From Coleofasciculus chthonoplastes F2-STO-03 (GTDB lineage: Bacteria > Cyanobacteriota > Cyanobacteriia > Cyanobacteriales > Coleofasciculaceae), in NCBI GenBank assembly GCA_040222015.1, contig JAVJWO010000106.1, positions 1 through 13,765 on the forward strand: a stretch of 13,765 bases of DNA, given 5' to 3'. Below, piece after piece: positions 7,761 through 11,592 of this stretch. The number at the start of each line of letters is the position of its first letter. Within the stretch, counting starts at the first letter, position 1. The translations under genes and the position numbers were made by a program. The notes under the pieces were generated by a model, which was given only the letters and a program-made list of their open reading frames with translations, was not told the DNA's origin and searched no databases.

Positions 7761-7857
7761 CTGTTATCATAGTGCCGTAATACCCCATCCTTCTATAGGG
7801 TGGGGATGTAAGGCGGGTCAACGGAGCGACTAGCCCTTCCAAATTACTTGGGCTTAG

Positions 7858-8167
7858 GTAGCCGAGAAATGTATTTCGTGACATACTCCTACACCGAATC
7901 AAAGATTACGGTGTAGGCTTCCAAGACAATCCGGCTACCCCTTAGGAGACTCTTGGCTTTATTAACGACACGGGATGCCCCTCCGCGCCGGAACAATACA
8001 AAGTTTTGTTCATCTATCTGTCTTGCTTTGCTTTGCTTTGTACTGCTGGAATTTTACCCGCCCACAGATGCGACTACAAATAGCCTGTTTCTAGGCGGAA
8101 CCCCATATTCCAGGTTGTCAAGGTACGGTGTACAGGAAGCGGTTAGCTTTATTCAATTAACCTGTAC
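7858..8167 (-). ncRNA. Putative stand-alone omegaRNA (TnpB reRNA)-like noncoding RNA with 3' guide
   Basis: Extended -10 TGCTATAGT (8174-8182), 5' stem GTACAGG/CCTGTAC, boxA-like GTACCTTGACAAC (8114-8126), no credible ORF. It ends in GAAGCCTACACCG-TAATCTTTGATT-CGGTGTAGGAGTATGTCAC, a typical TnpB right-end scaffold terminus. Confidence 0.55.
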
Positions 8168-8169
8168 CC

Positions 8170-8182
8170 TGTTACTATAGCA
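8170..8182. promoter_or_regulatory. Overlapping divergent extended -10 elements
   Basis: Plus strand TG-T-TACTAT (8170-8178) faces the RHH gene. Minus strand TG-C-TATAGT (8182-8174) faces the ncRNA. Confidence 0.55.
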
Positions 8183-8204
8183 ATGTGAAAGCAGATTGAA
8201 AACT

Positions 8205-8351
8205 ATGAAACAAGTAACAACGCGAGTATCGGATAGGGAGTATGAACATCTGACCAAATTTTGCGAAGTGACAGAAAGAACCCAGTCAGATGTTATTCGC
8301 GAACTGATACGCAAGTTATCAATCTCAGGGATGTTGAATCCCATCGATTGA
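8205..8351 (+). CDS. Ribbon-helix-helix (CopG-like) DNA-binding protein, 48 aa (not in ORF track)
   Basis: Manual translation MKQVTTRVSDREYEHLTKFCEVTERTQSDVIRELIRKLSISGMLNPID*. Beta-strand (KQVTTRV), helix, then RTQSDVIRELIR helix, typical of RHH proteins near cyanobacterial IS605 left ends. Confidence 0.85.
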   Translation: MKQVTTRVSDREYEHLTKFCEVTERTQSDVIRELIRKLSISGMLNPID

Positions 8352-8561
8352 TCGCCTATTCATCCCAACGCCAACCTAAGTACAGGTATGGCGTTGGGCT
8401 TCCGGCTTTAGCTTGCTAAACAAGTCAGGGAAGAGGAATTGCCGATACTGTAAATCCTTGTCCTACAGCCTTGCTCCGGGAGCGCTTTCAACTCAAAACC
8501 TTTCCAATAACTAAACTTTTGTAACGGGATCTTTCCGATTTACCGATAAATCAGGACAGTT

Positions 8562-8805: not shown

Positions 8806-8977
8806 GCTAAACGCTTAAAAAATCACCATTTTTTCACGAGTTTATCACACTAAATGGTGAGAATAATCACTATTTTTTATGGATTAAATTACAATAATTT
8901 CCCGAAAAATGGGAGATGATTTAGATGTAACTTGGTTGATTAGTTAAATTGAGTTGAGAGCAAACGGGGAACTAACA

Positions 8978-9241
8978 ATGAGAGTATTTACCAATTATAC
9001 AGTCAGCGAAGGAGATATAGAACTTCTGTTAAAAGACACAGATAACAATGAGTACATATCTTTCGAGGAATGGGACGCAGATGTCTTATCCCAAGACTGG
9101 GATGCGGATGCTTTTATCGAGGAATGGGATGCAGATTATCCAGTAAATGATAACAATAGGGACATCTGGTTTAATGACTGGAAGGAGTTTGAAACAAACT
9201 TAGACGACATGCTAATTAACTATCGCGAATGGGAACTATAA
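8978..9241 (+). CDS. Small highly acidic hypothetical protein with an EF-hand-like loop and WDAD repeats (87 aa)
   Basis: ATG 8978 follows GGGGA. DTDNNEYISFEE fits an EF-hand loop. EEWDAD, QDWDAD and EEWDAD recur at a 9-aa period. Confidence 0.7.
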   Translation: MRVFTNYTVSEGDIELLLKDTDNNEYISFEEWDADVLSQDWDADAFIEEWDADYPVNDNNRDIWFNDWKEFETNLDDMLINYREWEL

Positions 9242-10437: not shown

Positions 10438-11592
10438 TTACTGTCCTACAGTACGAAGTGCTTCCTTAAGTATGTTTATCGCAGCGTTCCAGTCACGGTC
10501 TAAAACACATCCACACTTACATTTATGTGTCCTCATCGAGAGTGATTTCTTCACAACACAACCGCAATTGGAGCAATTTTGAGAAGTGTAGTGGGGTTTA
10601 ACCGCGACTGTCGCCACACCAAAAACCTTGCCAAAATACTCAAGCCAGCAACGAAATTCAGACCAAGCCACATCGCTGATTGATTTAGCTAGGTGATGAT
10701 TTTTGACCATATTCCGCACTGGCAAATCTAGCCTTCGGCAAGCCGCTGGCGCGTCTACATAAGCTACCAAGTCGTTAGACCGGACTACGCACAATGCGTT
10801 CTTTACCGCAAAGTCTTTACGCTGCCTACTGACTTTCAAGTGCTTTTTGGCTAATTTTTGTTTAGCCTTTTTGTAGTTATTAGACTGGGGTTGACCTTTC
10901 TTGAACTTCCTATACACTCTCTGATGAAGTTGTTTCAGTTGCTTTTCTGATTTCCTCAAGAATCTCGGATTATCAACTGTTTGACCGTTTGAGTCTGTAT
11001 AGAAGTGATTCAGTCCAACATCTAACCCTACAGTCTTCCCCGTTGGCTCCCTATCTTCAGTTCTGTCATGGTCTATACAAAACTGAGCATAATAGCCATC
11101 AGCACGGCGAACCACCCGAACTCTCTTAATTGACCCAAGTTGGTAGTAGTTTAAGTCACGAGTGCCATAGAGTTTAAACTCTCCAGCTTTAAACCCATCA
11201 GTGAATGTAATGTGGTCACGATTCTCTGATAGCTTACAGCCTGATGTCTTATACTCTACTGAACCATGATTGGAGCGATTCTTCTTGTACTTGGGATAAC
11301 CTTTCTTTCCTTTAATCTGTTTCTTACAGTTATCGAAGAATCGAGAGATAGACGTCCAAGCACGCTCACACATGGCTTGACGGGCTTGTGAGTTAAGCTT
11401 TCTTACCCACAGCAAGTTTTTGTCTTTAGCGAGTACCGCGCAATACTTATATAAGTCATTGCGTGTCTTGCCTTGACCATCTTCCCAATAGCGAAGACAA
11501 GCATTACGCATAAACAGACCAGTACGAATGGCTTCATCGAGCCTTCTTTCCTGATACTCTTTACCTTTTAGCTTACCCTCGTAGACAATCAT
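10438..11592 (-). CDS. tnpB: IS605/IS1341-type TnpB, probably nuclease-dead and 3'-clipped
   Basis: GYPKYKK, RuvC-I GLDVGL, YTSQNCSNCG and CKCGC zinc finger, RuvC-III DRDWNAAINIL. RuvC-II reads AYVDAPAACRRLDL in place of the usual AYEDL. Confidence 0.92.
   Translation of the reverse strand: MIVYEGKLKGKEYQERRLDEAIRTGLFMRNACLRYWEDGQGKTRNDLYKYCAVLAKDKNLLWVRKLNSQARQAMCERAWTSISRFFDNCKKQIKGKKGYPKYKKNRSNHGSVEYKTSGCKLSENRDHITFTDGFKAGEFKLYGTRDLNYYQLGSIKRVRVVRRADGYYAQFCIDHDRTEDREPTGKTVGLDVGLNHFYTDSNGQTVDNPRFLRKSEKQLKQLHQRVYRKFKKGQPQSNNYKKAKQKLAKKHLKVSRQRKDFAVKNALCVVRSNDLVAYVDAPAACRRLDLPVRNMVKNHHLAKSISDVAWSEFRCWLEYFGKVFGVATVAVKPHYTSQNCSNCGCVVKKSLSMRTHKCKCGCVLDRDWNAAINILKEALRTVGQ
10727..10757 (-). repeat. 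27-bp small dispersed repeat inserted in-frame in tnpB, with TAGA direct repeat
   Basis: Minus strand TAGA-CGCGCCAGCGGCTTGCCGAAGGC-TAGA. The two TAGA copies are 27 nt apart and the insert adds 9 aa. Confidence 0.75.

Follow-up and report, generated by a model that had tools for sequence, protein, structure and literature searches.

Limits, target site and mobility of the element

The window analysed here, a stretch of 13,765 nucleotides of Coleofasciculus chthonoplastes F2-STO-03 (contig JAVJWO010000106.1), contains a segment that lacks both tnpA and tnpB and that, judged by its ends and homologues, is a nuclease-free, non-autonomous mini-transposon (PATE) of 538 bp derived from IS605/IS1341 elements. 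Unlike wholly ORF-less PATEs, it retains a small ribbon-helix-helix (RHH) gene. In BLAST comparisons with the organism's own genome and 40 relatives homology ends abruptly at 7878 and at ~8406-8415, and reading of the copies places the limits at 7878-8415, with TTAG| at the left and TCAC at the right. A first-pass annotation of this DNA had described a cassette of ~650 bp; its left boundary, at 8415 directly after TTAG, is retained, but the copies all end at 7878 and the element is thus 538 bp long. The target tetranucleotide (TAM) TTAG at 8416-8419 (minus strand) lies immediately outside the left end; the same four bases stand before the left end of 25 of the 28 family members parsed, and one of the three parsed exceptions, L002, on reading likewise carries it. 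The IS605-type left end (8352-8415, minus strand), with its subterminal hairpin at 8398-8364 (fold z -4.4), is common to the tnpB-bearing parents C26, C150 and L009. The right-end hairpin at 7917-7888 (minus strand), which folds as DNA with a z of -4.6, is followed by the terminal TCAC at 7878, as first annotated.

The cassette had been thought to lie between two left-end-like hairpins. The hairpin at 8398-8364 is one such boundary; the other, at 7768-7826 (plus strand), lies outside the element, folds more weakly (z -1.9) and is the end of an unrelated IS200/IS605 family. It resembles the end that lies 3' of tnpA in a distinct IS200-like family (C117, C116, C60, C57 and C3), matching the C117 tnpA-downstream end and four contig ends, and its sequence was found alone in 9 of 201 genomes. 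As copies of the element stop at 7878 and this hairpin belongs to another family, it was rejected as a second enclosing end. The predicted guide, believed earlier to be enclosed by a further IS-type hairpin, is thus plain flanking DNA next to a neighbour from another family. The adjoining segment 7617-7767 is present here, while G001 has other DNA instead; this segment and 7768-7877 may together represent one more insertion, into which the cassette then moved.

Mobility of the nuclease-free element, also part of the earlier proposal, is supported by unrelated flanks, the TTAG target and the empty sites of sister copies. Copies sit at unrelated flanks with exact ends, inserted 3' of the tetranucleotide without duplicating their target, and every guide is different. 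For the right flank of the copy on C108, a TTAG|guide empty site occurs in three of four relatives, the fourth having TTCG, and at the C140 site TTAG|guide is empty in three relatives, the organism's own copy being accompanied by a 150-bp adjacent deletion. The BLASTN comparison that the first-pass annotation had suggested yielded true ends and sister-copy empty sites, but no empty site for the window copy among the relatives; G001 is without the entire stretch and has other DNA there. In relatives the left flank of the C86 copy, at a contig end, is joined to the right flank of the C108 copy (C108:71644), which indicates, for the latter, either an assembly error across repeats or recombination with another copy. 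The genome also contains minimal PATEs of ~60-80 bp that consist of ends only, and a second family reduced to the scaffold (C65:5703-5783, C183:19645-19696, C98, C163 and C178:73034), and at C3:4099-4246 a tnpA-bearing IS200-like element sits within the scaffold of a sister cassette. A plasmid collection searched with the window element gave a single match of 38 nt.

Parentage, RHH gene and promoter

Shared architecture indicates that the element is descended from IS1341-type parents; L009, L010 and L021 share its left end, have a divergent RHH gene and carry tnpB after an extended -10 in the same place. A DNA profile built from seven tnpB parents aligns with just two parts of the element, 7986-7878 (E 2.7e-24) and the left-end hairpin, and a search with 44 TnpB proteins returned one match, in the same 3' part. 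It had been asked whether 7920-8150 is simply decayed tnpB. The part 7878-7986 is a tnpB 3' end, in keeping with an omegaRNA, while 7987-8167 was rejected as decayed tnpB since it aligns to neither tnpB DNA nor protein, a probable diverged tnpB hairpin at its extreme 5' end being the exception. The same genome encodes a cognate tnpB element (C150) with HTH, RuvC and TNB domains and D-E-D motifs all present, a broken cognate element (C26), and 17 Y1 transposase matches, 16 of them above the cut-off. A cognate tnpB with a matching scaffold was not found for four of eight copies examined in this fragmented assembly (C216, C196, C126 and C179), and, with the same fragmentation, the C140 and C130 copies showed only short or right-end matches to tnpB scaffolds.

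The divergent gene at 8205-8351 (plus strand), inherited from RHH-tnpB parents, encodes the 48-aa RHH-like protein noted in the first-pass annotation; its product matches Pfam RHH_1 with an E value of 5.6e-4 and 20.2 bits, just below the cut-off of 20.5, and the ORF at the same position in another copy passes at 30.4 bits. Of 15 distinct RHH sequences from cassettes, 13 scored as intact, and the median dN/dS was 0.08 (62 pairs). These values point to purifying selection, although the constraint may partly stem from the tnpB-bearing parents. The product is likely a repressor. In other end families, at least five further RHH-like types are oriented divergently to this RNA; most domain loci are without a divergent ORF, any short one being present in 34 of 156.

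The promoter (8174-8202, minus strand) comprises a -35-like TTTTCA at 8202-8197 and an extended -10, TG-n-TATAGT (TGCTATAGT), whose last base is 8174. On its own the extended -10 is at chance level (1 seen against 1.4 in shuffles); across the family, TGnTAnnnT lies 20-80 nt upstream of the boxA in 74 of 178 members compared with 10 of 178 control windows, which places the boxA shortly 3' of a promoter on untranslated RNA. The extended -10 first annotated is therefore present and enriched in the family, but its position is identical to that of the parental tnpB promoter (L009 and L010), so the promoter was inherited rather than newly dedicated to the RNA. From its position, transcription is predicted to start at ~8167 on the minus strand.

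Upstream of the pyrophosphatase gene ppa, most of the genus carries an old copy of the element that has become fixed (L099-L107; C176:14602-14640 in this genome). At these ppa loci the RNA has been deleted in several ways, and the -10 region is retained in eight loci that lack the family's ancestral promoter, suggesting that the element promoter likely drives ppa there. The converse possibility, that the RNA was captured from the host upstream of ppa, was rejected since relatives have the ancestral ppa leader without the RNA; these leaders, and TTAG beside the same flank in relatives, identify L057/L058 as an old fixed copy.

The predicted RNA and its guide

The RNA is predicted to be ~300 nt long and to have three parts: a 5' hairpin, an ~85-nt domain that tnpB elements lack and an omegaRNA scaffold of ~110 nt. 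The region 7878-8167 folds with a z of -2.9. With the nuclease gene lost, the promoter, RHH gene and scaffold kept, and a boxA and the domain added, the product is likely a stand-alone guide RNA for borrowed nucleases. The 5' stem of the first-pass annotation (P1, 8130-8167, minus strand; apical AAGC-UAACC-GCUU) is present, covaries in its basal stem, occupies a boxB-like position and is optional within the family. In tnpB parents the NKAENAG codons, ~300 nt 5' of the right end, make a hairpin, and a profile of it matches 11 of 193 upstream regions but 0 of 965 shuffles; a looser AGC-AA-GC motif occurs in 65 of 193 compared with 5.2 in shuffles. In some relatives, comparison indicates, the 5' hairpin clearly derives from tnpB coding sequence. 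P1 of the window copy has the loose motif without reaching the profile score, and is probably a diverged copy of the same coding hairpin. Thus, the RNA is most simply read as a foreign boxA domain set between a hairpin and a scaffold that both come from tnpB. The linker hairpin region between domain and scaffold (7990-8042, minus strand) is expanded here by short AAAGC repeats, and an allele shorter by 5 nt was seen in a metatranscriptome contig.

The core scaffold and right end (7878-7989, minus strand) bear out the earlier comparison with TnpB omegaRNAs, as the scaffold ends at the right end, contains its hairpin and is homologous to tnpB 3' ends. In an alignment of 12 tnpB-less copies and six tnpB parents, a five-helix model has 98.8% of cells paired over the 18 rows, with a covariation of 0.335 against 0.131 when shuffled. 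Stem 1 covaries, both its sides differing between cassettes and tnpB parents, and the fold has thus outlived the reading frame. A pseudoknot (7979-7975/7884-7880, minus strand) lies in a register like that of ISDra2; its pairs are kept but invariant in the 18 rows, and therefore rest on register and analogy.

The 16-nt guide predicted from flanking DNA (7862-7877, minus strand; length assumed from ISDra2) has, together with TTAG, no other match with fewer than three mismatches in its own genome, and so points at the element's own empty site. In L247, L269 and L278 two different domain-bearing mini-elements stand in tandem, so that the guide of the first is the left end of the second.

These data bear on whether the RNA might guide a dead, TldR-like TnpB or another host protein, the element then being a mobile regulator. 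The genome does contain TnpB-like genes with altered motifs, one of them in the window, and one old copy now provides a promoter upstream of ppa. Guides that differ with each insertion, lack conservation and, for the window copy, have no genomic target are difficult to reconcile with such a role, however, and C150, the closest scaffold partner, keeps all three catalytic motifs; we regard it as highly improbable, and a guide RNA directed at the element's own empty site as the better reading.

The conserved RNA domain

Between linker and boxA lies a conserved RNA domain without similarity to tnpB (8043-8113, minus strand; match to the refined model R2 at 8032-8129). It is predicted to comprise the stems S2 (8113-8107/8052-8046) and P4 (8098-8092/8064-8058), a pseudoknot (8067-8065/8045-8043) and a single pair (8114/8091), and its near-invariant loops are AUGGGGUU and GUAAA; in 59 of 59 aligned sequences the unpaired AUGGGGUU and GUAAAA are identical or nearly so. 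Over 42 rows, both partners have changed in 13 of the 14 base pairs of S2 and P4, and mutual information revealed two extra crossings (columns 68-70/90-92 and 16/40). The full model has a covariation of 0.604 compared with 0.233 when shuffled (0 of 500 shuffles reach it) and at most 0.161 in slid controls, scores that are inflated by the relatedness of the rows. Of 38 sequences not used for training, 33, 32, 33 and 38 keep the respective four pseudoknot pairs, with several pair types. Two further pseudoknots, AAC/GUU (columns 14-16/30-32) and GAACCUU/GGGGUUC, were dropped for want of compensatory change, the crossings 16/40 and 68-70/90-92 being preferred to them. The first-pass annotation would have abandoned its RNA if homologues showed no covariation; it is strong in the domain and is also seen in the scaffold.

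The domain is, on comparison of 212 matches, confined to tnpB-less elements, never lying beside a sense tnpB. Six TnpB profile matches lay near them, five on the opposite strand and one a short sense fragment ~900 nt upstream, in flanks that ranged from <300 to 1500 nt and with three of the six read base by base; no autonomous form, in which the element would itself contain tnpB, was found around the 212. Model R2 returned nothing from nine tnpB-element loci at E values up to 1.

It could be argued that the element is an inert deletion derivative, made up of leftovers of tnpB and DNA-level end structures and spread passively by TnpA. Its 3' part is indeed a tnpB 3' end, its 5' hairpin came from tnpB in some relatives, and many deleted versions are known. 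Against this, 7987-8167 cannot be aligned to tnpB and R2 finds nothing in the tnpB-element loci, while the covariation is strand-specific and tolerant of G-U, and pseudoknots and a host-matched boxA recur in two phyla. The covariation largely refutes the reading as a remnant, which we consider very improbable.

A compact pseudoknot with near-invariant unpaired bases is a pattern typical of ribozymes and aptamers. The domain may accordingly be asked to act as a catalytic or nuclease-blocking RNA that self-cleaves to give the omegaRNA a clean 5' end, in place of TnpB's processing of its own message, or that stalls 5'-3' decay, with the boxA as a mere leader. Such a role would suit a double pseudoknot whose unpaired bases are near-invariant in cyanobacteria and Bacillus alike. 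Rfam gave no match to ribozymes, riboswitches, group I introns or HEARO at permissive thresholds, however, the only score being 23 bits (cut-off 83) for an opposite-strand HEARO on a right end; the domain is without the P3/L3 part of HDV and the loop motifs of twister (compared by eye), and short variants without it are also mobile. This role thus seems unlikely, and we prefer a domain that assists a guide RNA. The short variants, in L060-L067 (G020), consist of 5' hairpin and scaffold only, often with small repeats inserted in loops. Numerous relatives are without the RHH gene, the 5' hairpin or the entire domain, none of which is therefore required for spread.

The boxA motif

The domain begins with a host-type boxA, GTACCTTGACAAC, at 8114-8126 (minus strand). 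The strict pattern occurs 25 times in the 7.7-Mb genome (6.8 expected): in 14 copies of the domain, six CRISPR leaders, the rpsJ (S10) leader, a tRNA array and three places that are unexplained. Of the sites outside the element, those at C124:19527, C165:48267, C47, C77, C108 and C216 belong to rpsJ, the tRNA array and the six CRISPR arrays. Both assembled 16S leaders have an ACCAAG variant, as do the domain copies C1, C108 and C137, and a boxA reported from cyanobacterial ITS sequences (PMC8461337, as far as its available text goes) is identical to that of the element. Judged by its other genomic sites, the boxA-like motif of the first-pass annotation is the host's boxA, as used in CRISPR, rpsJ and tRNA leaders. 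The knotted domain was not seen behind this genome's other boxA sites.

Copies in Bacillus carry a CTTTGAAA-type boxA that resembles the B. subtilis consensus given in PMC13753749 (available text), and the motif thus follows its host. NusB is encoded in the Coleofasciculus genome; Rho was not found there, and the classical purpose of boxA is therefore missing. The terminal boxA base pairs within the domain, and a 3' strand may partly sequester the motif (68-75% of cells), so that its conservation could be structural; the repeat expansion of the window copy disrupts the outer stem that pairs with the boxA. Bacillus-type and E. coli-type boxA patterns numbered 0 in viral contigs. At C117:26460-26862 two convergent boxA-like motifs flank a small ORF. 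A full-text literature search found no paper joining boxA, TnpB and antitermination.

Distribution and RNA data

Scanning 185,579 genomes with a pattern gave 28 stretches, which lie in Coleofasciculus, Moorena, Symploca, Potamolinea, Scytonema and one further bin. Model R1 matches 38 of 151 genomes of the order and R2 26 of 151 genomes of the phylum; in the organism's own genome R2 matches 19 places on four end types (5, 6, 7 and 1 copies). A metagenome scan added >119 domain loci and a viral scan four, and a phage collection gave no match. With a loose detector, a right end was found downstream of 133 of 163 domain matches, at a median of 174 nt, compared with 45 of 140 controls, and the scaffolds 3' of the domain fall into 29 clusters.

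A copy on a viral contig led to plasmids from the Bacillus cereus group, where the same domain, with all stems kept, lies in an ORF-less IS605-type element (L375-L378). This element is ~390 bp long, preceded by TTTAT and unannotated, and occurs at 561 places in 252 plasmid records. It may or may not be one of the bcr repeats (bcr1-18) of this group (PMC6542083, PMC6199540, PMC3446304), with which it was compared by description only. Both are structured repeats, but the bcr repeats are described in the available text as specific to the group, whereas the domain also occurs in cyanobacteria.

Part of the stretch is contained in 20 of 21 RNA runs, four of which were examined as assembled contigs, from which start, strand and level are not readable. 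In run X1 the element and its flanks are covered alike; in X9, from a biocrust, 7869-7991 and 8033-8155 are covered by deep contigs of relatives and the RHH gene by none, at most a weak hint of expression. An abundant, stable omegaRNA mimic might instead serve as a decoy, titrating TnpB (or Nus factors) and dampening self-cutting, to the benefit of host and element and with no need of restorative homing. Up to ~20 copies per genome with several scaffold types, a window guide without a second target and, weakly, the X9 contigs would fit such a decoy. It would have no use, however, for end-precise guides, and everything that targeting of the empty site needs, from scaffold and TAM to the exact right end and the register of the pseudoknot, is retained; we hold a decoy to be improbable and return to a guide RNA that restores its element.

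Proposed function and relation to known systems

Sequence and comparison define the boundaries, mobility and parentage of the element, the covariation of scaffold and domain, the identity of the boxA, the restriction of the domain to tnpB-less elements and the constraint on the RHH gene. The reading that we favour, and consider reasonably probable, is that the PATE makes one ~300-nt RNA that is loaded in trans by TnpB and restores the element, boxA and domain aiding this RNA. TnpA supplied in trans would move the element, and the inherited tnpB promoter would transcribe the RNA, with the RHH protein likely tuning or repressing the divergent promoters. The host boxA at the front of the RNA likely recruits NusB-S10, and the knotted domain would aid synthesis, folding and persistence of an RNA that has no tnpB message in cis. 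TnpB from other elements would then bind the 3' scaffold, as proposed for PATE omegaRNAs acting in trans (PMC10055086, available text). By the same analogy, the flank-derived guide would direct cutting of the TTAG-guide junction left by excision, and recombination would restore the element.

Similar to the Geobacillus stearothermophilus PATEs of Meers et al. (PMC10055086), the element has no tnpA or tnpB but IS605 ends and a TAM; as in these PATEs and in the stand-alone omegaRNAs reported in PMC10691335, whose role is there termed unknown, the omegaRNA stops at the right end and TnpA and TnpB are predicted to act in trans. Omega-RNA-bearing PATEs and stand-alone omegaRNAs are thus already in print. 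In contrast to those PATEs, so far as the available text describes them, the element adds an RHH gene under constraint, a promoter inherited from its parents, the host's boxA and a double-pseudoknot domain that covaries, and the one domain is coupled to many scaffold and end types. The omegaRNA of ISDra2 (PMC10097598, available text) has a 116-nt core and a dispensable 5' region that overlaps tnpB. It shares with the element a core of ~110-116 nt, stem 1, a flank guide and a pseudoknot between ~-100 and -3 to -6; here the 5' region is a non-coding domain instead. The order of hairpin then boxA just 3' of the promoter recalls rRNA and CRISPR leaders (PMC13753749, PMC8461337), but unlike the leaders in the available text of these papers it stands on the guide RNA of a selfish element whose host has no detected Rho. 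IStrons (10.1101/2023.11.20.567912, available text) likewise fuse a structured 5' RNA with an omegaRNA in an IS605 transcript; the present RNA differs in having no group I intron match, in being far shorter and in a right-end C/A in place of the splice-site G. The domain is not described in the open-access papers that literature searches listed.

A bolder proposal, which we offer tentatively and think rather less probable than not, is that host boxA and undescribed double pseudoknot form a portable, cross-phylum expression module for parasitic guide RNAs. Recombined onto many TnpB scaffolds, it would let elements without a nuclease hijack the Nus factors that serve rRNA and CRISPR transcripts, outcompete omegaRNAs loaded in cis and represent a CRISPR-like leader step. 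If so, its double pseudoknot would be new, whether as a ribozyme, a block to decay or a fold that captures TnpB, and it would illustrate how a transposon guide acquires a CRISPR-like leader, with a bearing on the origin of type V CRISPR RNAs. The element makes the build of a stand-alone omegaRNA concrete: the promoter is inherited, the boxA is that of the host, a folded domain is dedicated to the RNA and the scaffold can be swapped. The candidate Nus substrate is short and testable, in a lineage without detected Rho, and runs parallel to CRISPR leaders that use the same boxA in the same genome. The domain would also be a new compact pseudoknotted RNA motif common to cyanobacteria and Bacillus, and such a natural 5' extension might increase the stability of TnpB guides in editing tools.

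Other features of the window

A 95-aa, highly acidic ORF at 8954-9241 contains a 27-bp repeat three times (9063-9136) and has no Pfam match. A tnpB of another family occupies 10438-11592 (minus strand); its RuvC-II position reads YVD with a seven-residue insertion, the Glu is missing from its C44 relative too, and the window gene, which has no right-end hairpin 3' of it, is thus probably inactive.
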